Shown piece by piece: positions 10,471 to 55,286 of a stretch of DNA of 64,000 nucleotides. The notes beneath the pieces were generated by a model, which saw only the letters and a program-made list of their open reading frames with translations, made no database searches and was not told the origin of the DNA. Source of the stretch: an uncultured Candidatus Saccharibacteria bacterium (GTDB lineage Bacteria; Patescibacteriota; WWE3; UBA101185; UBA10185); assembly GCA_964387275.1 (NCBI GenBank), contig CAYLVW010000003.1:45796-109795 (forward strand). Reading direction: 5' to 3'. Every line of letters starts with the position of its first letter. Within the stretch, counting starts at the first letter, position 1. The translations under genes were made by a program, and so were the position numbers.

Positions 10471-11322
10471 CTAATTAGACAATGGATCAGTGGTAGATCT
10501 TTGTAACAGGGCGTAGTCAAAATCTTGAGGAAGAGCAACGGGTGTCTTTGTTATAGTTAAAGTTTTTTTTGCATCGCCCGAAGTACCTACTATGTCTATT
10601 TGAACCCCTTGCTGAGGTACTGTAAGACCAGTATCTGGAACTATTGTTACTGTCACATCTGAGTAATACGCTTTTAATCTAACTAGTTTTGGGGCTGTTC
10701 TTCCGTCTATCCTAAAGCAGTTTTGATAGGTGTAGAGCGGCGCGGCCGTGGAAAAACCATTAAATGTATTTGTAGAATTAGCTGAATTGTAGGCATAAGT
10801 ATCTGTACCGTAACTGCCGGCCGCGCCGCTAACAAAAATTGCGTACAAAGAAGGGGCTGTAGCACCAGAGCTAGTAGAGTTCCAACAAACCCAAAAATTT
10901 CTGTTATTAGGATAATTGGTCATGTTCACCTCTGAAGAATCAACCCTACCAATTGGCAAAGAATATGTAGCGAGATTACCTAAATATGTAATTATAGCTG
11001 TAGCTGAAGAACTTATACCTCTAGGGTCAGTAACACTCAAGCTACAATTGCCACCACAATTTGTAATATAATTCTCTAGAACCGAGTTATCCTCTGCAAG
11101 TAATCTCTCTGCGAGCGCTTCTGCTACTGCAGTAGCTTTAACATTTGAGTCTCCAGTTGAAAATATTCGCAGAGTTTTGTAAAACTTTTCTGAAACAGAA
11201 ACAACAACCCCTAGGGCTAACATCAATAAAAATACTACAGCCAAAAGGGTCTGACCACGCTCTTCCTTTAAAACTACACTTATCTTTTTAAAAAAACCAT
11301 TTATGATGTAAGTACTTCTCAT
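10471..11322 (-). CDS. PilX_N-like pilus-associated protein (third paralog)
   Basis: N-terminal 'ERGQTLLAVVFLLMLALGVVVSVS' resembles 'SGQALLLVIVSLTVALAVVTSIS' of the two PilX-like cassette genes. Confidence 0.5.
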   Translation of the reverse strand: MRSTYIINGFFKKISVVLKEERGQTLLAVVFLLMLALGVVVSVSEKFYKTLRIFSTGDSNVKATAVAEALAERLLAEDNSVLENYITNCGGNCSLSVTDPRGISSSATAIITYLGNLATYSLPIGRVDSSEVNMTNYPNNRNFWVCWNSTSSGATAPSLYAIFVSGAAGSYGTDTYAYNSANSTNTFNGFSTAAPLYTYQNCFRIDGRTAPKLVRLKAYYSDVTVTIVPDTGLTVPQQGVQIDIVGTSGDAKKTLTITKTPVALPQDFDYALLQRSTTDPLSN

Positions 11323-11334
11323 AACTATACCTGC

Positions 11335-11853
11335 CTAGTAATTACCTCTTGGAACTATAGTATTACTTATTGTGTAGGTTATAGGACTTTGGCCAGCAAG
11401 GGTCGTTTGTGAAAACGTCATATCTAACCTAACACTTTGAATACCATTTACTGTAGTAAGTGTAAAACAATTCGTTCCACAAGTAACAGTAACACTACCC
11501 GCTGAGGAATTATTTTGAGTTAGAGCCACCGTGTTTCTTTGAACCACTCCTGATGTAACAGAATAAGTGACATTAGTGTTACTTGAGTCTACAAAAGTAA
11601 TACTTGTACCACCCCCAGTAACACTACTACCGGCTCTTAGCTCCTTTTCAAGTTTTAAAAAAACGAAGTTTGCTGCTTGCTCAACTTCTGTTGCAATTTG
11701 ATTTTTAGTGTAGGACCTAACTAAAGTCAAAATAACATCAGAAGTAACCCCCACAGAAATTACAAGAAGTGATATTGTTATGACTAACTCCATTAGTGTA
11801 AAACCAGATCTGTTAGCTCTTAATATCTTAGTAAAATTCATTTTCTCCTCCAA
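11335..11853 (-). CDS. Type IV (pre)pilin-like minor pilin
   Basis: Class III signal 'RSGFTLMELVITISLLVI' (G-F-T-L-x-E). Confidence 0.7.
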   Translation of the reverse strand: MEEKMNFTKILRANRSGFTLMELVITISLLVISVGVTSDVILTLVRSYTKNQIATEVEQAANFVFLKLEKELRAGSSVTGGGTSITFVDSSNTNVTYSVTSGVVQRNTVALTQNNSSAGSVTVTCGTNCFTLTTVNGIQSVRLDMTFSQTTLAGQSPITYTISNTIVPRGNY

Positions 11854-29546: not shown

Positions 29547-30212
29547 ATGTTAGGTACAATATTAATCTACGGAGGAACTATAGAAGAAAGAATAGGAAAG
29601 GGAAAAACCTACATAAGTGAATTAAAAATACCTTTAACCCCCAACCCAGATCTATTTATACTAGAAAATGAACCAGATAAAAAAAGCATCGGAATTAAGG
29701 AAACCAAGAATGCAATTGGTTGGCTTGTAGATAGGCCCTTTTCGGCGCCACACAAAGCCTTACTAATTCCCCAAGCTGAAAAACTAACACTTGATGCACA
29801 AAATTCTTTACTCAAAACCCTCGAAGAGCCTCCAACCAAAACCTTAATAGTGCTTTGTACAAAAAGAGAAGAAGACCTAATACAAACTGTTATATCAAGA
29901 AGTAGAAAAATTGCGCTTACTAAAACCAATAACAGCAACACACCAGATATTGACGGGGTTAGCTTTAAAGAAGTACTAAAAATGGATTTGGCTACTAAAT
30001 TAGAAAAATCGACTGAACTTGCAAAATTGGAAAGGTCAGAAATTGTAGATCTTCTAACAAACTGGGAAAATGAAATACATGATAATCTCCTAAGTATTGA
30101 AACTTCTTCACTAATAAATTCGTATAATATTATTAGAGAAGTTAGAATTGATCTGGAGAAAACAAATGTCAGTATTAAGTTTGGTTTGGACTATCTAATG
30201 ACCCAAATCTAA
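29547..30212 (+). CDS. holB: DNA polymerase III delta'-like clamp-loader subunit (short form)
   Basis: 'LLKTLEEPP' clamp-loader signature. Only 221 aa. Confidence 0.6.
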   Translation: MLGTILIYGGTIEERIGKGKTYISELKIPLTPNPDLFILENEPDKKSIGIKETKNAIGWLVDRPFSAPHKALLIPQAEKLTLDAQNSLLKTLEEPPTKTLIVLCTKREEDLIQTVISRSRKIALTKTNNSNTPDIDGVSFKEVLKMDLATKLEKSTELAKLERSEIVDLLTNWENEIHDNLLSIETSSLINSYNIIREVRIDLEKTNVSIKFGLDYLMTQI

Positions 30213-32240: not shown

Positions 32241-32336
32241 TTTACGTGTATTTTCTTTTTTAACATTAAAATAGCTAGCAGGTTACAAGTAATGTGTTAG
32301 CCTATATTTGAATCTTTGTTGGTTTGAATATGATTT

Positions 32337-32388
32337 GGGCGGGCGGGTTGAGGTGGATTATTTTTTACCACTACAGACCCGCCCGCCC
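32337..32388. terminator. Strong GC hairpin (11-bp perfect stem gggcgggcggg/cccgcccgccc, 30-nt loop) between convergent genes
   Basis: Directly visible inverted repeat. Lies between gyrB and minus-strand ORF 32448-32915. The loop is unusually large for a terminator. Confidence 0.4.
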
Positions 32389-32447
32389 TATGAACCAAAC
32401 GAAAACCTAAACCAAAAAAACTAACTCAGACAACAACCTTACAAAAC

Positions 32448-32915
32448 CTAAATCAGATCTAAACCACTTCCCCTAAGATTAAGATGAGCAGGTTGGTACA
32501 ACTCGCCGAAAGCTAGATCCTCACACCCACTAGGATATCTATCACTGCATGCCCAAAGCTTGTAGCTTCTTGCATTACTATAATCATAGAAACAACCACC
32601 TCGTTCATTCGTAGCCACAATTCCAACATAAAAATCGAAAATATCTCTAGGCAAAGTAAACATGACGCTCGTCTTTATGCTACCGTTATACCCAAGATAC
32701 TCTACAACATGATGTATTTCAAAAACCAAAATATCCTTCCTAGTTCCAGGAATAGAAATGCGACTATTAAGCTTAGGTTGCATATCAGCTTCACTAAGTT
32801 CGGGGCTAGGATCAAATCTTGTAGCAAGTAGCCTGAGCCAATTAAAAGGAAGCCTAGATCTATAAGAAGCGGGCTCTGCCGTAAAAATACGATTAGGTTG
32901 CCGTGACAGAGCCAT
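32448..32915 (-). CDS. Hypothetical protein
   Basis: 155-aa ORF with no recognisable motif and somewhat higher GC. Confidence 0.35.
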   Translation of the reverse strand: MALSRQPNRIFTAEPASYRSRLPFNWLRLLATRFDPSPELSEADMQPKLNSRISIPGTRKDILVFEIHHVVEYLGYNGSIKTSVMFTLPRDIFDFYVGIVATNERGGCFYDYSNARSYKLWACSDRYPSGCEDLAFGELYQPAHLNLRGSGLDLI

Positions 32916-33079
32916 TAGAGCCTCCCAGCACGGTTGAAAAGACTAAACAAACCTTCAATGAAACATCTGACAAACACCTGAACCATTGTAGCTCCTTTGC
33001 AAATGGGCGAATCATCCCACCAGCAGCTTACAATTCTACCAACTTGAATAACAAAAGCCAAATCTGGTAGACTGCATCA

Positions 33080-34033
33080 ATGAAAATATACACAATAGGG
33101 CATTTATCTCCAGATCTAGATGCAATAACCTCAGCTGTTGCATATGCAGAGTATTTAACAGTTTCTAAAAAATATAATGATGCTGTCGTAACACCATTAA
33201 GGCCAGGTAGCCCAAATAAAGAAGTGGACTATATTTTCAACAAATTCGGGCTAGCCATACCAAAACACATTGAAGAGGTGGAAATACTACCTGAAGACAA
33301 AATAATTCTGGCTGATCACAACGAACAAGCACAAAGACATCCAAAAATTAATCCCGAGCAAATTATGGAGATTGTTGACCACCATAAGATTAACGTAAGC
33401 TTCAACAATCCTATAAAAGTAGACATTAGGCCCATAGGCGCAACTGCAACAATAGTTTCTGACTATTTTGAGTTACTTAAAATATCCCCAACCCCACAAT
33501 TAGCGTCAGCAATGGTGTGTGCAATTTTGTCAGATACATTGGGCTTAAAAGCAGCCACAACAACAGAAACAGACATTAGAGCAGTAGAAAAGCTTACAAA
33601 AAACTTTAACTTAACTGTAGACGAGCTTATTTTTGATGTATTCAAAGCTAAATCAGACTTAAGCGGGATGTCATTTGTTGAGATAGTAAAAAAAGATTAT
33701 AAAATGTTTGAGTTTTCAGGCAAAAAGGTCTTTATTGGTGGTATTGAGACTGTAGAACCAGAAAAAGTTCTAGAATCAAAACAAGATCTAGTTACTGCAC
33801 TTGGGGAAGTAAAAAAAGAACTAGGAGCTGATCTTGGGTTTATATTTGTATCAGATATTCTAAAAATATACTCAATTGGTATATATCAAAGTGATGATGA
33901 AAGAACAGTTTTAAATAAAGCTTTTAATGTAGATGCGGGGGATTTCTCAATTCATGTGGGTCCTATAACCTCAAGAAAAAAAGATATAGCCCCAGCTATT
34001 GAAAAAGCCTTAATCCTAAGCACGATTAGATAA
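33080..34033 (+). CDS. ppaC: DHH/DHHA2 family II (Mn-dependent) inorganic pyrophosphatase
   Basis: 'GHLSPDLDAITSAVAYA', 'LADHNE' and 'VDHHK' DHH motifs with a C-terminal DHHA2 region. About 317 aa. Confidence 0.75.
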   Translation: MKIYTIGHLSPDLDAITSAVAYAEYLTVSKKYNDAVVTPLRPGSPNKEVDYIFNKFGLAIPKHIEEVEILPEDKIILADHNEQAQRHPKINPEQIMEIVDHHKINVSFNNPIKVDIRPIGATATIVSDYFELLKISPTPQLASAMVCAILSDTLGLKAATTTETDIRAVEKLTKNFNLTVDELIFDVFKAKSDLSGMSFVEIVKKDYKMFEFSGKKVFIGGIETVEPEKVLESKQDLVTALGEVKKELGADLGFIFVSDILKIYSIGIYQSDDERTVLNKAFNVDAGDFSIHVGPITSRKKDIAPAIEKALILSTIR

Positions 34034-34091: not shown

Positions 34092-36722
34092 ATGGCATCA
34101 AAAAATAAAGAAATTCGACCATTTGAACAAGACAACCCAGATGGGATTATAAACTCCGATATTACATCAGAAATGCAATCAGCATATCTTGATTACGCTA
34201 TGTCAGTTATTGTTTCAAGAGCACTTCCTGATGTAAGAGACGGTCTAAAGCCTGTTCATAGAAGAATCATATATGCCATGCAGGAACACAACATGATACA
34301 CACAGGTAAGTTCCATAAGTCTGCAACAGTTGTTGGTAATGTAATGAGTAAATACCACCCACACGGAGATGTTGCTATTTATGATTCTCTGGTTAGAATG
34401 GCCCAAGACTTTACACTTAGATACCCACTAGTAATTCCACAAGGTAACTTTGGTAGCATCGACGGAGACCCAGCAGCTGCGATGAGATATACAGAGTGTA
34501 AATTAGCCCAAGTATCCGAAAAACTATATGCAGATATAGACAAAGATACAGTTGATGTAGAACTAAATGACTTGCAAAATGAAGAACCAAGATTTCTCCC
34601 ATCAGTTCTACCAAATTTGTTATTAAACGGGTCCTCTGGTATTGCAGTTGGTATGGCCACTAATATACCGCCACATAACTTAGGTGAAGTTGTAGATGGG
34701 TTAATTCATACCATGGATAATGCAGAAACATTGGGCAATGAAAAAGACATCTACGAAGTAGAACTAAACTTAAACTTTAACAAAAACAGAGAGAAAAAAA
34801 TCGGAGATACAGTAAGAGTTGTAAAAACCGAATTTTCGTCGTCAGCATCAGTAGAAGACCTGATTAATCATATAAAAGGACCGGACTTCCCAACTGGTGG
34901 AATAATATACGATCAAAAAGAAATCATTCAAATGTATGCAACAGGCAAGGGAAGAGTAGTAACCAGAGCAAAAATGGAAATAGAAGAATCTAAAACAGGT
35001 AAAACAAAGATCATAGTCACGGAAATCCCATACCAAGTTAATAAAGCTACCCTCATAGGTAAAATTGCAGACCTAGCAAGAGAGAAAAAAATAGACGGGA
35101 TATATGACCTCAGAGATGAGTCAAATAGAGAGGGTATGAGAATAATGATTGAGCTTAAAAAAGAAGCTATAGCAAAAAAAGTACAGAATCAACTCTACAA
35201 ATATACACAGCTTCAAAACACATTTAATGCAAACATGGTAGCTCTTCTGGATAATGAACCACTATTGATGCCTCTAAAAATGATGTTAGAGGAATTTATA
35301 AAGCATCGACAAAAAATCGTTGTCAGAAGAACCATTTTTGATCTTAGAAAATATAAAGAAAGGGAACACATTTTAGCAGGCCTTAAAAAAGCCCTGGATC
35401 ATCTGGACGAAATAATAAAACTTATTAGAGGCTCAAAAGATGCAGAAACTGCAAAAATAGGCTTAATAGAAAAATTTGATTTCACGGAAATACAAGCACA
35501 AGCAATCTTAGACATGCAACTTAGAAAACTTGCTGCTTTGGAGAGAAAAAAGATTGAAGATGAACTTGAGGAAATTACGAAAACCATAAAAGGTTTAGAA
35601 GCTCTACTAATATCACCAAAAAAGATTGCAGAAACAATAAAATCAGAACTTTTGGCTTTAAAAGAACAATATGGCGATGAAAGAAAAACAAAAGTAATCA
35701 AGGGTAAGGTAGGTGAACTATCTGATGAAGATTTAATAGTTGATGAAGCCTGTATTCTTACAATATCAGACAACGGATATATTAAAAGATTAAAAGAGGA
35801 TACATATAAAAAGCAGGGAAGAGGAGGTAAGGGTGTTACAGGCCAAACACTAAAAGAAGAGGATGAGGTTTCTATGCTACGAACCTGCAGAACCCATGAC
35901 TATGCGTTGTTTTTCACCAACCTAGGAAAAGCCTATAAATTAAGAGTTTGGGAAATAGCAGAGTCTTCTAGAACCGCAAAAGGCACGGCTCTTGTGAATT
36001 ACCTAAATATCCAAAAAGAAGAAAAAGTAGAATCGCTTCTTACCCTAACTCCTGAAGAATTTGAAAGCAGCAAAGGATATGTATTCTTCGGAACTCAAAA
36101 AGGTAATGTTAAAAAAACAAGCCTAGAGGAGTTCGCCAATATTAGAGCCTCTGGTATTATTGCAATAAAACTAGACGCAAATGACAGCTTAGTCTGGGCC
36201 CAAGTATCTTCGGGATCTGATACAGTACTTCTTACAACAGCACAAGGTCAGTCTATAAGATTCACTGAAAAAGATGTAAGACCTATGGGTAGAGCAGCAG
36301 CAGGTGTAATTGGAGTAAAACTCGCAAAAAGAGACGACAGGGTAGTTGGCATGGTTGTAATACCACAAAAATTAGGAAACCTCGATCTTATTACAGTAAC
36401 CGAATTGGGTTACGGTAAAAAAACCAAACTAGCTGAGTACAAAGTACAGGGAAGGGGCGGATCAGGTATACAAACCCATAAAGTCAATGATAAAACAGGG
36501 GAGCTTGTAAACGCCAAAACTCAAGATGAAACTTCGACTGGGGATATATTAATTGCAACACTAACCGGAAAAGTGATAAGAATTACCAACAGCTCAATCC
36601 CACAACAAGGAAGAGCTACAAGTGGAGTCAGACTCATCAGACTAGAAGAAACAGATAAGGTAACATCGGTGGCCTTGATAGAAGAAATTGAATCTGCAGT
36701 AGATCCGGAATTAAACCCCTAG
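34092..36722 (+). CDS. gyrA: DNA gyrase subunit A
   Basis: '[23 protein letters not shown]' and active-site 'RYTE' region. C-terminal beta-pinwheel repeats. 876 aa. Confidence 0.95.
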
Positions 36723-36827
36723 CTTTTCGTAAATAAACTGTGAACTGATTAGTCTACCTCACCTTTTTTCTTATAGGTAATGGTCAATATGCACACCAAC
36801 ATGGTTAAAATCCGTGTTTCACCTGCC

Positions 36828-36874
36828 ACGAAAATAAAAAGTACCCACACCTCAGTTCAAACCTTAGTGTGGGT
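36828..36874 (-). terminator. Rho-independent terminator of ORFan P1
   Basis: Stem 'acccacac'/'gtgtgggt' followed on the minus strand by 'ttttatttt'. Confidence 0.5.
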
Positions 36875-36883
36875 ATTAAAAAG

Positions 36884-37288
36884 CTAATAACTCAAATCGC
36901 GTAAAAACCCCTCTACGTTATCCAACCAAGACTGATCCCCAGTTCTTACAACCTCAGCGTATTTCTTATCAAAAAGTTCCCTAATGTAGCTCTCACTTGC
37001 ACTAATATATACATAAATATTATCTCTAAGAAGAGCACTAAGGGCGGGCAAAGTTTCATTGTAGAAATGTTTGAGATTATTTCTTGAATCACTAACTCCT
37101 ATATATGGATAATCGTGAACTTTATAGATATGTAATCCATACTCAATACCTTTGTATTCAACAAATAAAACGTTGCACTTCGCACCTGATCTGCACAACA
37201 CACCTCTAATTGAAACCCTACCACTACGTAAGCCTTCAACAAGAGTTCTTAGCAGTGCATAGTCATATTCGGTGATACGTGCCGACAT
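36884..37288 (-). CDS. ORFan P1 (island 1)
   Basis: 134 aa with no known motif and its own terminator. Possible weak similarity to P2 (58659-59084). Confidence 0.5.
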   Translation of the reverse strand: MSARITEYDYALLRTLVEGLRSGRVSIRGVLCRSGAKCNVLFVEYKGIEYGLHIYKVHDYPYIGVSDSRNNLKHFYNETLPALSALLRDNIYVYISASESYIRELFDKKYAEVVRTGDQSWLDNVEGFLRDLSY

Positions 37289-37427
37289 CTTGCCTCCTCT
37301 TTCCGTAGACTTTGGAAATACTAACTTACACTACTACAAATGTCAAAATCAAAACCAGGGCTATAAAATGCTGGGTTGTGCATAGCCTATATTTCTAAAC
37401 TTATGCCTCTCCACGCTGTTGCCTTAC

Positions 37428-37470
37428 AAAAAAGGGCTCCATAAATACCAAACGGCACTATATGGAGCCC
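37428..37470 (-). terminator. Rho-independent terminator of ORFan P3
   Basis: Perfect 10-bp stem 'gggctccata'/'tatggagccc' with a T6 run on the minus strand. Confidence 0.6.
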
Positions 37471-37508
37471 AAATAAACTATTACTTCTCTCTACTTCACA
37501 AAAAAACC

Positions 37509-37949
37509 TTACTCATCGTTAGTTGAAAGCAAAAACTCAGCAAGATTAAAACGAAACCGCCGGTTAGTAGCGAGTCTCTTCTTTGTTTGTACAGCAACAG
37601 CAGCCTTAAACTTCCTAAGAATTGAAACAAAAATATCAGGATATCTTGTCAATTCAAAGTCATATAAAGCCATATCCCGCAACTTTTCTACACAAAGATC
37701 TCCGGTGACAATCCCCGTACCTTGCCTATCAACAATGGCAACCTTAAGAGTGTCTGGACAATTACGAACATTAGTAATAGTAATTTTCCTGTATCTATCA
37801 AGAACCACAAGAATATACCCATCCGGGTTTGTAATAGTATCGGTCTCAACTACATGCAGTTCTGTAGACTTCAGACCTTTAATTACATCAAAAACGTAAT
37901 CCAGCAACTCAAATACCTGTCTATTTGTAGCAACATACAGACCGTGCAT
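37509..37949 (-). CDS. ORFan P3 (island 1), homolog of P4
   Basis: Shares 'TNPDGYILVVLDRYRKI' with P4 'TNPDLGIVEQVLDRRFKV', and 'FDV' upstream. Confidence 0.5.
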   Translation of the reverse strand: MHGLYVATNRQVFELLDYVFDVIKGLKSTELHVVETDTITNPDGYILVVLDRYRKITITNVRNCPDTLKVAIVDRQGTGIVTGDLCVEKLRDMALYDFELTRYPDIFVSILRKFKAAVAVQTKKRLATNRRFRFNLAEFLLSTNDE

Positions 37950-37992
37950 TTGTTTTTCTCCTGCTTGAAAGACTCTTTATCTACTGAGTCAA

Positions 37993-38448
37993 TTACTCTG
38001 TAAAGCTCCTAAGAAGTTCTTTAAGCCACCTATCAATACCAAAGTGTTCACGAAGCCCATCTGCTCCGTATTTATGGTCCAACGCTGACGCAATAATACT
38101 AGTAACACTCTCGTATAGTTCGTTGAAATCGTTATTCTCAGCATATGTCAACCTCTTACCGTTATAAACCTCAATAAGTACCGGCTCTCTACTTACTCTA
38201 TTACCATATACTGTAATAGTAAGCTCAGAGCTTGTATTAGCATCAATCTCAGGTCTATAAATTACTTGAATTGAGGTATCGTTGGAACCTAGCAAGGTAA
38301 AAATACAAATTCTATCCCTCTCCCTATATTCAAAATTAAAAGTGTTGCTAGCCAAGGCCTTGATACCAAGAGTCACAAGTAGGGTGTGTACCGTTTTAAG
38401 AAGATCAAATCTACCTTTAGTATTGAGTCTTCGGATACCGCTTGCCAT
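37993..38448 (-). CDS. ORFan P6 (island 1), probable homolog of P5
   Basis: Start moved to the MASGIRRL ATG. 'VYGNRVSREPVLIEVY' matches P5 'LVGEIKSRELGIVLRDLY'. Confidence 0.45.
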   Translation of the reverse strand: MASGIRRLNTKGRFDLLKTVHTLLVTLGIKALASNTFNFEYRERDRICIFTLLGSNDTSIQVIYRPEIDANTSSELTITVYGNRVSREPVLIEVYNGKRLTYAENNDFNELYESVTSIIASALDHKYGADGLREHFGIDRWLKELLRSFTE

Positions 38449-38507
38449 CTCGTCTCCTTTTCCACTATCGGTCAGAATTTTACTAGGAAATACTATATAA
38501 TGCAAAT

Positions 38508-39212
38508 GTGCTCGAATACGAAAAAAACCTGCTATCACAGCAAAAAATACATATAGCCGGTGTGGATGAGGTGGGTAGAGGCTGCCTGGCAGGTCCTATG
38601 GTGATAGCTGCAGTAATATTAGACCACAAACACATTGAGCAATTAACAAGTAGAAATAACGACGTCTCAAATGGTATGAAGGAATTAGACATTGGAATAG
38701 TTACTAAATATACCCAAATTAAAGATTCTAAGCAGATTAGCGACAAAAAGAGAAGGGAACTAGCAAAATTTATTAAACAAGCTGCAATTACGTACTCAAT
38801 TATAGAAATTAGTGCGTCAAATATTGATAAATACGGTATTTCTATGTGTACTAATTACGGGTTTCGTGAAGCTGTATCAAAACTCACCATACGACCCCTG
38901 CATATACTGACGGATGCATTTAAGATAACTGGAATAAATCCCAATATTCAAACAAATTTGGTAAAAGGCGATACAAAGTCCATATCTATAGCATCTGCAT
39001 CAATAATCGCAAAGGTATACAGAGATGATCTGATGATAAAACTCTCCCAAGATAATAACTATAGTATGTATGGTTTTGACAAGCACAAAGGGTATGGCAC
39101 TGCTCTGCATCTTTCAAAAATAAACGAACATGGATCCTCAGACATTCACAGAACAACTTTTGCCCCAATTTCCCACCTAATAACAAACTCTTACAAAAAG
39201 CCCACTAAGTAG
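38508..39212 (+). CDS. rnhB: Ribonuclease HII
   Basis: 'IAGVDEVGRGCLAGPMV' RNase HII N-terminal DEDD motif. Confidence 0.85.
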   Translation: MLEYEKNLLSQQKIHIAGVDEVGRGCLAGPMVIAAVILDHKHIEQLTSRNNDVSNGMKELDIGIVTKYTQIKDSKQISDKKRRELAKFIKQAAITYSIIEISASNIDKYGISMCTNYGFREAVSKLTIRPLHILTDAFKITGINPNIQTNLVKGDTKSISIASASIIAKVYRDDLMIKLSQDNNYSMYGFDKHKGYGTALHLSKINEHGSSDIHRTTFAPISHLITNSYKKPTK

Positions 39213-41524: not shown

Positions 41525-42508
41525 TCACTCATCATCATTAAAATCCTCACTATCTATTTCTTTATGAAATTTCTCATGTATGTCCTTTAACTGTTTGTTA
41601 GTGACATGGGTATAAATTTGGGTTGTTGATACATTTGAGTGACCTAATAACTCCTGGACAGAGCGCAAATCAGCCCCATTTCGCAGTAAATCCGTTGCAA
41701 AAGAGTGCCTCAGTGTATGCGGAGTTGCATCAACACTTATACCCGCTCTTAATGTATATTTCTTAACAAGTCTTTGAACACTTCTGACAGTAAGCCTCAG
41801 GGATTCACCCTCAAAATCTTCAGGCTCCATATGCTTACCACTATATCTAAGAAATAGAGGATCAAAACTGTCTATTCTGGTACCTAAATATCTTTTTAAC
41901 CAGCTCCTAGCACTTTCTCCTAAAAACACCATTCTTGCCTTACGACCTTTACCAATTACTGTAAACTCACCAGTATTTAAATTAATATCGCCTTTATTTA
42001 GCTTTACCAACTCACTTACTCGAAGACCAGTTGTAAAAAGTGTCTCTAAGATCGCCCTATCTCTTAAACCAGATTTTTTGTTTAAATCTTGCACTTCAAA
42101 TAATCTCTTCAGTTGATCATTGTCCAGTACTTTAGGGACCCTGTCTTCCATTTTCCCAAGAATAATCTGATCCGGGGAAATTACCTCAATTTTTTCTTCT
42201 ACCAGCAAATATTTTAAAAAAGCTCTTGCAGCAACCAAAAAAGTTTTTTGAGTAGTTCTTTTAAACTCGGTGTTAAATTTTTTGCTTTTGCGCCTGTTTA
42301 AATCCAATCTGTATTTCCTGATTAATTCTTCGCTTAAATCCTTGGCAGTTAACTTGTCCTTACTAAGCTGAGCAGAGCACCAGTCTAACATGTCAGTAAG
42401 ATAAAAGTGGTACATTTTTATGGTATTTTGAGACAAGTTTTTTTCAATCTCACAATGCTCTAAATATCTAATTAAAAGGTCGTGAAGGGTTTTTCCAGAT
42501 TGTGGCAT
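41525..42508 (-). CDS. Tyrosine site-specific recombinase (XerC/XerD family)
   Basis: C-terminal 'HTLRHSFATDLLRNGADLRSVQELLGHSNVSTTQIYTHV' (R..H..R..Y catalytic signature). Start set at the MPQSGKTLHD ATG. Confidence 0.85.
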   Translation of the reverse strand: MPQSGKTLHDLLIRYLEHCEIEKNLSQNTIKMYHFYLTDMLDWCSAQLSKDKLTAKDLSEELIRKYRLDLNRRKSKKFNTEFKRTTQKTFLVAARAFLKYLLVEEKIEVISPDQIILGKMEDRVPKVLDNDQLKRLFEVQDLNKKSGLRDRAILETLFTTGLRVSELVKLNKGDINLNTGEFTVIGKGRKARMVFLGESARSWLKRYLGTRIDSFDPLFLRYSGKHMEPEDFEGESLRLTVRSVQRLVKKYTLRAGISVDATPHTLRHSFATDLLRNGADLRSVQELLGHSNVSTTQIYTHVTNKQLKDIHEKFHKEIDSEDFNDDE

Positions 42509-42530
42509 AACATATATGTTAACAGATATT

Positions 42531-42560
42531 TGTATGGAGTTTAACGACATTAATTTATAA
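42531..42560. repeat. Direct repeat copy A (overlaps the xer 5' end and upstream)
   Basis: 'tgtatggagtttaacgacattaatttataa' against copy B 'tgtatgtttaacgacattgaattacat'. Confidence 0.6.
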
Positions 42561-43013: not shown

Positions 43014-43019
43014 ACTAAG

Positions 43020-43989
43020 ATGCCTCCTTTAGGCATAGTTCTTTCTCCGTCTACGATTTACAGTTTATACCACCCAGAGTCGTAGCGAGTCAAATGATTC
43101 AGCATACCTATTAATAATAATAATCGATCCTGGGGCATTCTAGAGGCCATATGCCAGAATTTGTTGCTACTACAAGTAAAACAAGCCTTTACATGTCCCA
43201 TATAGTGTATAGAGAACTAAATAAGGAGGAGTCTAGTCATTAAAAAGCAAAACTAGCGGCAAGGGAAAACTATAGTGATAGACAAAATAGGGAATAAATA
43301 AAAAACTAAAATAATTTTTCAAATTTTTTTATCTTACAAATAAATTACTTCGCCAAAATAAAAACTAAAAATAAAATATAGACTAATTTTTAGAGAGAAG
43401 CGCACTTTACTAGATATCTGAAACGTCGTTAAATGTATGTTTAACGACATTGAATTACATTTTAGGCCTTACTACAGTAACTAAAGAGATTCACAGGTAA
43501 AAAGAGAAGAGTTAGTAATCGGACAGTAATTTAATCCCGAATTTCACTAAATTAATCACTATAAAAAAATATTTAAATAAATAATAAATATATTATTAGT
43601 TTCTTAACCAGGCTCAACACCACAGCTTAAGTGATTGGGTTTGATATACCGCAGTCCTACATATCCACAAAGTCTACTCCCTGCACAGGTGGATATTACC
43701 TAAATTAGAATCAAAAATCATGGGTTTTTGTTGTTATATTAACCTAAAGAGGCATAACTATGACAAACCTCCATAAAAACTATGACAATCCTACAATGGT
43801 CATTAGAATATTATTATGACAAACGTACAACTATAGGTTAGCAGACTACCCTATAGTATGCTACCCTGCTTCTCTGTCCCATACTGTAACCCGAAAAATT
43901 ACCCAACAAATAATTACTCAATAATTCCCTTTTTATTGCAGTGAAAAGGAAAATAAAAACTCACGATATATTTTTTATAAATATTAAGC
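43020..43989. promoter_or_regulatory. 970-bp AT-rich ORF-free region with DnaA-box-like motifs and short direct repeats
   Basis: No ORF of 60 aa or more. 'atatccaca' at 43661 and 'ggtggatat' at 43688. Three copies of 'tatgacaa(a/t)c' at 43759, 43781 and 43815. Long A/T tracts. Confidence 0.4.
43444..43470. repeat. Direct repeat copy B (pseudo 5' end of xer, 'MSLN...')
   Basis: The reverse complement encodes 'MSLNIH...', mirroring the Xer N-terminus 'MSLNSIQ'. Contains the palindrome 'gtcgttaaatgtatgtttaacgac'. Confidence 0.55.
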
Positions 43990-46610: not shown

Positions 46611-47468
46611 CTATCTTAAATCATCTAAATCAGCCAAATCCTTAGTAGTTTCATTAGGAAGTGCAACAATTTTGGGCTTTACCTCATTTACTACTTTTAC
46701 TGGTTTTTTTTCTTCGACGGATGGGTTCGGTTTTGGCTTTGCTCTAGAAACACTAGATACTACTGCAGTAGTGGGTTTAGAGGCAGGATGACCTCCACCG
46801 ACACCTTTAAAACTCTGCCCCTGCTTTTTAACCAAAGAAGGTTTTGGTAAAGAATTGCTTTCAGATTTTTGAGTTATAACTGCGGGTGCTTCAGACTTTA
46901 CTACCTTATTAAATGCAGCAAATGGAGCAGATAAATTAGACTCTGGCAATACCACATCAATTAAATCGTTTAGCTTTACCTGATTAAACTCAATAGCTCT
47001 ATCTAGAAGTAAATGAGACCCAGCTTCGGTAAGAACATGCCATTTCCCTTCTTTTTTTGTAACAACACCCTCAAGATTTTTCCTTGCTACTTTTTCAATT
47101 TGTTTAAATACTTTCTTCCCATCTTCCTCAATAATTTTCAAAATATCTCCGTAGACTAATCTGGATTTAGCAGCATAATTGGAGGGAACCTCATGCTTAG
47201 AGCCATCTGAGGCAATAATGTATTTGCCATCGTACTTCCCCTCAACGCCCGGCATAGATTTGTAATCCTTTCTCTCCATAATAGCCTCCATTACATCTTT
47301 TGCGGAATCTAAAGCACGCTCAGCTGCATCAACTAGCTTCTTTAATTTGTTTAATTGGCTTTTTAGATTGGGGTCTTTGAGATCTACAGTTAGATCTTCT
47401 TTGTTTAAAACAATACTTGTATCTGCGTCAGATGCAGTATTTTGCGATAAATTTATTGTATCTGTCAT
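46611..47468 (-). CDS. Hypothetical protein with a Lys/Pro-rich C-terminal tail
   Basis: No motif. C-terminus 'KPKPNPSVEEKKPVKVVNEVKPK'. Downstream of the large ATPase. Confidence 0.4.
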   Translation of the reverse strand: MTDTINLSQNTASDADTSIVLNKEDLTVDLKDPNLKSQLNKLKKLVDAAERALDSAKDVMEAIMERKDYKSMPGVEGKYDGKYIIASDGSKHEVPSNYAAKSRLVYGDILKIIEEDGKKVFKQIEKVARKNLEGVVTKKEGKWHVLTEAGSHLLLDRAIEFNQVKLNDLIDVVLPESNLSAPFAAFNKVVKSEAPAVITQKSESNSLPKPSLVKKQGQSFKGVGGGHPASKPTTAVVSSVSRAKPKPNPSVEEKKPVKVVNEVKPKIVALPNETTKDLADLDDLR

Positions 47469-55200: not shown

Positions 55201-55286
55201 TGGTGCCGTGAGTGAGAGTCGAACTCACACGGGATTGCTCCCAGTGGTTTTTGAGACCACCGCGTATACCATTCCGCCACCACGGC
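55201..55286 (-). tRNA. tRNA-Leu (anticodon CAA), type II with long variable arm
   Basis: Reverse complement 'GCCGTGG TG GCG GAATGGTATA CGC G GTGGT CTCAAAA ACCAC TGGGAGCAATCCCGT GTGAG TTCGACT CTCAC TCACGGC A CCA'. 7-bp acceptor, 3-bp D stem, T-loop TTCGA. CCA is encoded. Confidence 0.8.

Follow-up and report, generated by a model that had tools for sequence, protein, structure and literature searches.

The DNA analysed here, a window of 64,000 nucleotides, belongs to contig CAYLVW010000003.1 of an uncultured bacterium. Its closest gyrA relatives are metagenome-assembled genomes of candidate division WWE3 (Katanobacteria), within the candidate phyla radiation (CPR, or Patescibacteria), and among species representatives in GTDB they reach at most 73% identity. 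The plus strand carries, in order, gyrB, a DHH phosphoesterase gene, gyrA, an insert, rnhB, an IMPDH-family gene, a gene for a membrane protein of 349 amino acids (aa), and a gene for a Xer-type recombinase. The insert is 1,785 bp long, runs from the stop codon of gyrA to the start codon of rnhB (36723-38507), and contains three minus-strand genes, called P1, P2 and P3, which the map of open reading frames (ORFs) places antisense to both flanking genes.

The insert is probably a lineage-specific accessory cassette, placed in reverse between gyrA and rnhB, that is made of two insulated units and encodes three selected, fast-evolving proteins. In this model, the cassette entered the normally tight gyrA-rnhB junction of a WWE3 ancestor, in reverse orientation, before the lineage of the window split from its sister lineage. 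One unit would consist of a promoter, P3, P2 and a terminator, and the other of a promoter, P1 and a terminator. Such a layout would insulate the cassette from its convergent and divergent housekeeping neighbours. The three proteins would be members of no known family, with a predicted mixture of helix and sheet, and would have been kept by purifying selection.

The gyrA-rnhB junction

The left flank of the insert is gyrA (34092-36722, plus strand), whose orthologue in the sister lineage matches the expected Pfam families. The right flank is rnhB (38508-39212, plus strand), which encodes RNase HII and whose orthologue matches the Pfam family RNase_HII. Gene order around these two genes was compared in 41 WWE3-like loci, drawn from genomes in GTDB and metagenomes at JGI, all of which contain both gyrA and rnhB. 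The sister lineage is excluded from this sample, and some genomes are sampled twice. In 32 of the 41 loci, gyrA and rnhB are co-directional and separated by an estimated gap of only 5-138 bp. The other nine carry 0.47-2.2 kb of unrelated cargo between the two genes. Where this cargo was read, it consists either of same-strand genes for NrnA-like DHH phosphoesterases (one or two per locus) or of a reverse-oriented gene for a membrane protein of about 205-213 aa. Alternative cargo lies at 10609-11628 in locus L012, 7697-8710 in L013, 10531-11541 in L018, 10474-11529 in L021, 8592-10656 in L036, 10540-11181 in L007, and 8923-9537 in L040.

P1-P3 occur solely in the lineage of the window and in one sister lineage (loci L001, L002 and L003), in the same place and the same orientation. 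No relatives of them were found in 58 other WWE3-like loci, searched by hmmsearch --max with the HMMER filters off. These comparisons uphold two claims made earlier from the DNA letters alone (the original prediction), namely that the conserved gyrA-rnhB neighbourhood has received an insertion and that the inserted genes are ORFans. The same prediction named two findings that would speak against it, well-characterised homologues of all three ORFs and relatives that carry them as ordinary core genes; neither was encountered.

The sister lineage was assembled independently by JGI, Logan and ENA, and is the sole relative in an index of 5.8 billion proteins. A further independent Logan assembly (L004) matches the window at 100% identity over P2, P1 and most of gyrA. 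The arrangement of the cassette is not an assembly artefact, as it recurs across assemblies from NCBI, Logan, JGI and ENA that are independent of one another. A search with gyrA as the query, in genomes of GTDB and metagenomes of JGI, recovered no locus with a gyrA identity between 73% and 99%, so that alignments are limited to two sequences.

One hallmark of a genomic island, presence or absence at a conserved site, is seen here: none of the 41 related loci has the cassette, which is confined to the window, L001 and L002. Another classical hallmark, deviant composition or codon usage, is not. The GC content of the three ORFs is 0.373-0.384, compared with 0.371 ± 0.027 for a set of 28 long ORFs in the window, and is thus within half a standard deviation; the “somewhat higher GC” reported earlier is not meaningful. 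At third codon positions their GC is 0.31-0.33 versus 0.29 ± 0.022 (about +1 to +1.8 standard deviations), and their codon-adaptation index is 1.6-2.6 standard deviations low, similar to that of rnhB. No integrase, tRNA or flanking repeat was found at the insert, where repeats are no better than chance 10-mers, and Rfam matches that could mark a mobile element are also lacking. The sole tRNA of the window is at 55201-55286. Across WWE3, the XerC-like recombinase (41525-42550) keeps its position, and it is therefore a housekeeping gene. The cassette is thus without the classical marks of recent transfer in composition, integrase, tRNA or repeats.

The variety of its contents shows that the gyrA-rnhB junction is a permissive, recurrently used variable site. 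This bears on a different explanation, in which the position is itself functional and P1-P3 modulate the products of their neighbours, DNA gyrase or RNase HII. Small gyrase-binding proteins exist in other bacteria, and the cassette adjoins gyrA on one side, while on the other a divergent control region of 59 bp is common to it and rnhB. However, P1-P3 have no Pfam match to the GyrI-like, CcdB, ParE, YacG or pentapeptide families, and the cargo found here in other WWE3 lineages is unrelated, as would be expected if the site were no more than permissive. The gyrB-DHH spacer contains a second orphan gene, not related to P1-P3, which also argues against a special role for this position, and modulation of the neighbours is very unlikely.

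That second gene, orf155 (155 aa), is likewise reverse-oriented (32448-32915, minus strand) and lies in an 840-bp spacer between gyrB and the DHH phosphoesterase gene (32241-33079). The corresponding gap is just 13-76 bp in L012, L013 and L021. Apart from the window, only L001 and L002 have this gene, with 92% identity and a ratio of nonsynonymous to synonymous divergence (dN/dS) of 0.07. It has no Pfam or NCBIfam match and is unrelated to P1-P3. Its presence suggests that the lineage has repeatedly gained single reverse-oriented units in spacers of the gyrB-rnhB gene cluster. A strong GC-rich hairpin with a perfect 12-bp stem (GGGCGGGCGGGT ... ACCCGCCCGCCC) sits at about 32330-32385, in the stretch where the ends of gyrB and orf155 converge. 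It is not followed by a T-run on either strand and may be an atypical or bidirectional terminator.

The origin of the DNA is a separate question. One possibility is that P1-P3 were formed de novo, or were overprinted on an earlier gene of the junction that had decayed. The proteins have no homologues beyond the sister lineage, and the junction holds genes in other lineages that could have decayed. In most relatives, however, the site measures about 140 bp at most, so that raw material for 1.8 kb must have come from elsewhere. Comparison by tblastn with the cargo of other lineages revealed no leftover similarity (E ≥ 0.06 throughout), and the other reading frames of the insert contain no Pfam remnants. 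In addition, both lineages already possess the three genes in well-formed state, complete with ribosome-binding sites, promoter-like sites and terminators. An origin on the spot is accordingly highly improbable. Because most relatives offer so little DNA at the junction, the insert was imported from some donor.

Selection and inheritance

The three genes are those of the original prediction, with 134, 146 and 151 codons. P1 (36884-37288, minus strand) encodes a soluble protein of 134 aa with a pI of 6.8; its ribosome-binding site is GAGGAGG. P2 (37509-37949, minus strand) encodes 146 aa, with a pI of 8.6 and a basic C-terminal helix, and has its own site, AGGAG. P3 (37993-38448, minus strand) encodes a soluble protein of 151 aa with a pI of 6.3, behind AAGGAG. 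Strong ribosome-binding sites are thus found upstream of all three starts.

In comparison with L001, P1-P3 have dN/dS values of 0.21-0.28 in the annotated frame and contain zero stops. When these alignments are shifted out of frame, the ratio rises to about 1.0-1.4 and 7-37 stops appear. Insertions and deletions between the two lineages are whole codons only. P1-P3 are real genes under purifying selection, because their dN/dS is low, their frames are open, their indels are codon-sized, and a ribosome-binding site precedes every start.

A sceptical explanation would be that the ORFs are spurious and the segment is a non-coding spacer. The absence of homologues and domains and the low confidence of the structural models would agree with it. 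It is contradicted by the ribosome-binding sites, by the codon-sized indels, by dN/dS of 0.21-0.28 where shifted frames give about 1, and by frames that have stayed intact across a synonymous divergence (dS) of about 0.6-1.2. The contrast between frames makes this explanation scarcely credible, and it is effectively refuted.

The same comparison provides a date. Synonymous divergence is high across the whole region shared with L001 (dS 0.5-1.2), and that of the cassette (0.6-1.2) equals that of the flanking genes. The cassette was therefore present before the window and sister lineages split, and has been vertically inherited since. The insertion can be placed, by these estimates, before that split and after the divergence from relatives whose gyrA is at most 73% identical.

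When dN/dS is compared over the 19 genes that the window and L001 share in 20 kb, P1-P3 rank as the top three, at 0.22-0.28. Taken singly against L001, the values are 0.27 for P1 (63% identical to its L001 orthologue), 0.22 for P2 (76%), and 0.21 for P3 (62-63%). The next highest value among the 19 is 0.14, and the median is about 0.03. At the protein level, P1-P3 are 62-76% identical between the lineages, compared with 99% for gyrA and gyrB; the dN/dS of gyrA is 0.009, whereas rnhB is 84-85% identical with a dN/dS of 0.14. Recent transfer was considered as a source of this hyper-divergence (63-76% against the 99% of gyrA) and was rejected, since dS is the same as in the flanks. The low protein identity therefore reflects weaker constraint and not a separate ancestry.

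Transcription units and regulatory DNA

The three genes are probably organised as two transcription units, P3-P2 and P1. P2 starts 43 nt after the end of P3. This gap contains the AGGAG ribosome-binding site, no significant hairpin (z -0.8), and no terminator. P3 and P2 are assigned to one bicistronic unit, with P3 as its first gene, because of this gap and because a shared terminator follows P2. P1 would be monocistronic.

The terminator of the P3-P2 unit is at 37428-37470 (minus strand), where a stem at 37434-37470 is followed by a run of six T at 37428-37433 (dG -25.3 kcal/mol, z -4.8). Its outer stem is 10 bp long and perfect (GGGCTCCATA / TATGGAGCCC, inverted repeat I8) and is identical in L001. 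The terminator of P1 is at 36831-36875 (minus strand), with a stem at 36842-36875 (TACCCACAC / GTGTGGGTA) and a T-rich tail down to 36831 (dG -18.7 kcal/mol, z -2.9); it is also conserved in L001. Both had been recognised in the original prediction as rho-independent terminators, and both are real hairpins with a T-run, at the places given there and with stems intact in L001. The conclusion drawn from them, that the genes are individually terminated, was wrong: the terminator at 37428-37470 follows P2, of 146 aa, and not P3, of 151 aa, which leaves two units for three genes.

Each unit is preceded by a promoter-like site, whose activity is inferred. That of P3-P2 (38477-38506, minus strand) consists of TTTGCA, 18 nt and TAAAAT, agrees with the consensus at 9 of 12 positions, and sits in the 59-bp divergent spacer adjoining rnhB. 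That of P1 (37318-37346, minus strand) consists of TTGACA, 17 nt and TAGTAT, and is the top match of the scan, with 10 of 12. Both hexamers of P1 are identical in L001, and both hexamer pairs are intact there. The spacers that hold these signals are about 85% (P2-P1) and about 94% (rnhB-P3) identical to L001. The coding DNA of P1 and P3, on the other hand, is 70-73% identical, with differences at 40-60% of synonymous sites. The regulatory signals are thus more conserved than the coding DNA, which supports expression of the cassette from its own signals.

A similar layout is known from phages. Morons are additional stretches of DNA that separate genes found side by side in relatives, each unit having its own promoter and terminator (PMC3594210). 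The cassette could thus be phage-derived cargo of the moron type, acquired horizontally as autonomous units that could encode exclusion, defence or anti-defence. Its layout fits the published definition, as its extra units carry their own terminators and conserved promoter-like sites (of inferred activity), and its best fold matches in BFVD are uncharacterised phage proteins, none at E ≤ 0.001. Unlike a moron, the cassette lies in a chromosomal housekeeping cluster (gyrB, DHH, gyrA, rnhB and the IMPDH-family gene), has ordinary GC, and has no phage homologues. No phage genes are nearby, the only recombinase is the housekeeping XerC-like one described above, and there is no match in IMG/VR, in 50,697 phage records, or in PHROGs. 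A phage origin is unlikely.

Two further features of the regulatory DNA can be mentioned. The P2-P1 spacer also contains a plus-strand promoter-like site, ATGTCA-18-TAAAAT, at 37340-37369, which runs antisense through P2 and P3 towards rnhB, a gene that the insertion has separated from its upstream neighbour gyrA. This site may be due to chance, as the scan total is no higher than in shuffled sequence. Between the stop codon of gyrA and the P1 terminator, the window has about 75 extra bases (about 36723-36800) that are absent from L001 (about 11065-11158). This is the sole large indel inside the cassette region relative to L001.

Families and possible functions of P1-P3

P1-P3 are soluble proteins of 15-17 kDa with pI values of 6.3-8.6. 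They contain no enzymatic motifs, membrane segments or signal peptides. Searches of Pfam, PHROGs, PADLOC and NCBIfam at E ≤ 1 gave no match apart from one at chance level, which bears out the earlier statement that the proteins have no recognisable domains. Profile searches of PDB sequences gave chance matches only (E ≥ 1). In the index of 5.8 billion proteins, P1-P3 return only themselves and their L001 orthologues; this is a word index, and it missed the orthologue of P1, which was recovered from the DNA of L001. An exhaustive HMMER search of P2 against 1.84 billion representatives found the L001 orthologue alone. Pattern scans of IMG/VR with P1-P3 and tblastn of P1-P3 against the 50,697 phage records returned nothing, and there are no paralogues of P1-P3 within the window.

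Two small, adjacent, apparently co-transcribed and fast-evolving genes with a single terminator after the second also resemble type II toxin-antitoxin or toxin-immunity pairs. On this account, P3-P2 would encode a poison and a co-transcribed neutraliser that binds it directly, and P1 would be a solitary gene of the immunity or antitoxin type. The likeness ends there. Neither a toxin nor an antitoxin family is found in Pfam, NCBIfam or PADLOC at E ≤ 1, and no DNA-binding antitoxin domain was detected. The two genes are spaced by 43 nt and do not overlap, and they occur in two sister lineages only, unlike mobile modules, which are patchily distributed. The fold matches come from low-confidence models. 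A toxin-antitoxin pair is distinctly improbable. Each of the explanations set against the accessory cassette, from neighbour modulation to this one, either has no positive evidence behind it or conflicts with a test result.

Structure prediction and a Foldseek search, as the original prediction had proposed, yielded models but no identification. AlphaFold, run on two-sequence alignments, gave a pLDDT of 40.1 for the concatenated P3, P2 and P1, and of 46.8 for P3 alone. P3 is predicted to have one N-terminal helix, a five-strand meander and then three C-terminal helices, in the same order in both runs. P1 was modelled once, in the concatenated run, and shows a similar order of elements. P2 is the least confident part of that model and has fewer predicted strands. 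With these low-confidence models, Foldseek found no match in the PDB at E ≤ 0.001, and a search of BFVD found only uncharacterised phage proteins (E ≥ 0.0035). Fold matches of this quality may indicate architecture at most, not family.

At the level of architecture, the models (pLDDT 40-47) can be compared with small binding proteins that have a helix-backed antiparallel sheet, such as the FP domain of PI31/Fbxo7, actin-capping protein, DR_1245, CdiI, PsiB and AcrIIA11. YbjN-like and type III chaperone-like folds, with related binding folds of helix and sheet, are possible comparisons at the same low confidence. Because P1-P3 have no enzymatic motifs, membrane segments or signal peptides, and because a helix-backed antiparallel sheet is predicted, they most likely bind macromolecules, as adaptors, inhibitors or immunity-type factors. 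Their role would then be accessory or related to conflict, and a metabolic or core function seems less likely.

Several points weigh against the reading of the insert as an accessory cassette of this kind. The promoter scan found 9 sites where 9.8 are expected in shuffled sequence, that is, no enrichment, and what speaks for the promoter-like sites being real is their position and conservation. Selection is resolved gene by gene and not site by site, since only two lineages are available. The exhaustive HMMER search covers P2, while P1 and P3 were searched through the word index. None of P1-P3 matches a defence family of PADLOC-DB v2 at E ≤ 1. Finally, the evidence that suggests a role in binding or conflict consists of negative results and of models with a pLDDT of 40-47.

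A bolder model would treat P1-P3 as very diverged copies of one new helix-backed-sheet fold, which together form a previously unseen module for conflict or symbiosis. An example would be an inhibitor or immunity set that an episymbiotic WWE3 lineage directs against a host or phage factor. The model is based on similar lengths, a similar predicted order of helices and strands, fast evolution, and insulated units, and it is rather improbable.

The simpler proposal that P1-P3 are tandem paralogues of one family was tried and rejected. BLASTP gives no alignment among them at E ≤ 10, and hhalign gives a probability of at most 0.3%; their resemblance in the order of helices and strands is seen solely in models of low confidence.

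To return to the accessory cassette, it is a genuine orphan cassette of a kind that is common in CPR genomes and will not surprise a specialist. A survey of the phylum counted 54,343 lineage-specific clusters of unknown function (283,874 genes), of which 45,788 are at the species level. Like those clusters, P1-P3 have no family, are restricted to the species or genus level, and belong to a CPR genome. The difference is that for this one cassette the insertion site, the layout of its units, the selection regime and an approximate time of arrival have been worked out. It is therefore a clean, datable case of accessory-gene gain by a reduced CPR genome, in which a self-contained reverse-oriented unit was dropped between co-directional housekeeping genes where other WWE3 lineages hold different cargo. 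P1-P3 add three families without relatives among billions of sequences. They are under selection and therefore do something; without a function, the cassette changes no open question.

Elsewhere in the 20 kb shared with L001, a few other genes evolve somewhat faster than the rest, with dN/dS values of 0.09-0.14. These are the DHH phosphoesterase gene (33080-34033), rnhB (38508-39212), and the genes at 29547-30212 and 46611-47468; the remainder of the shared region has values of 0.008-0.08. A segment of about 975 bp at 43014-43989 contains no ORF of at least 50 aa, has no called gene in L001 either, and has no Rfam match at E ≤ 1. Its GC content falls to 0.25, and its nucleotide identity to L001 is 67-83%, with indels, compared with about 88% in its flanks.

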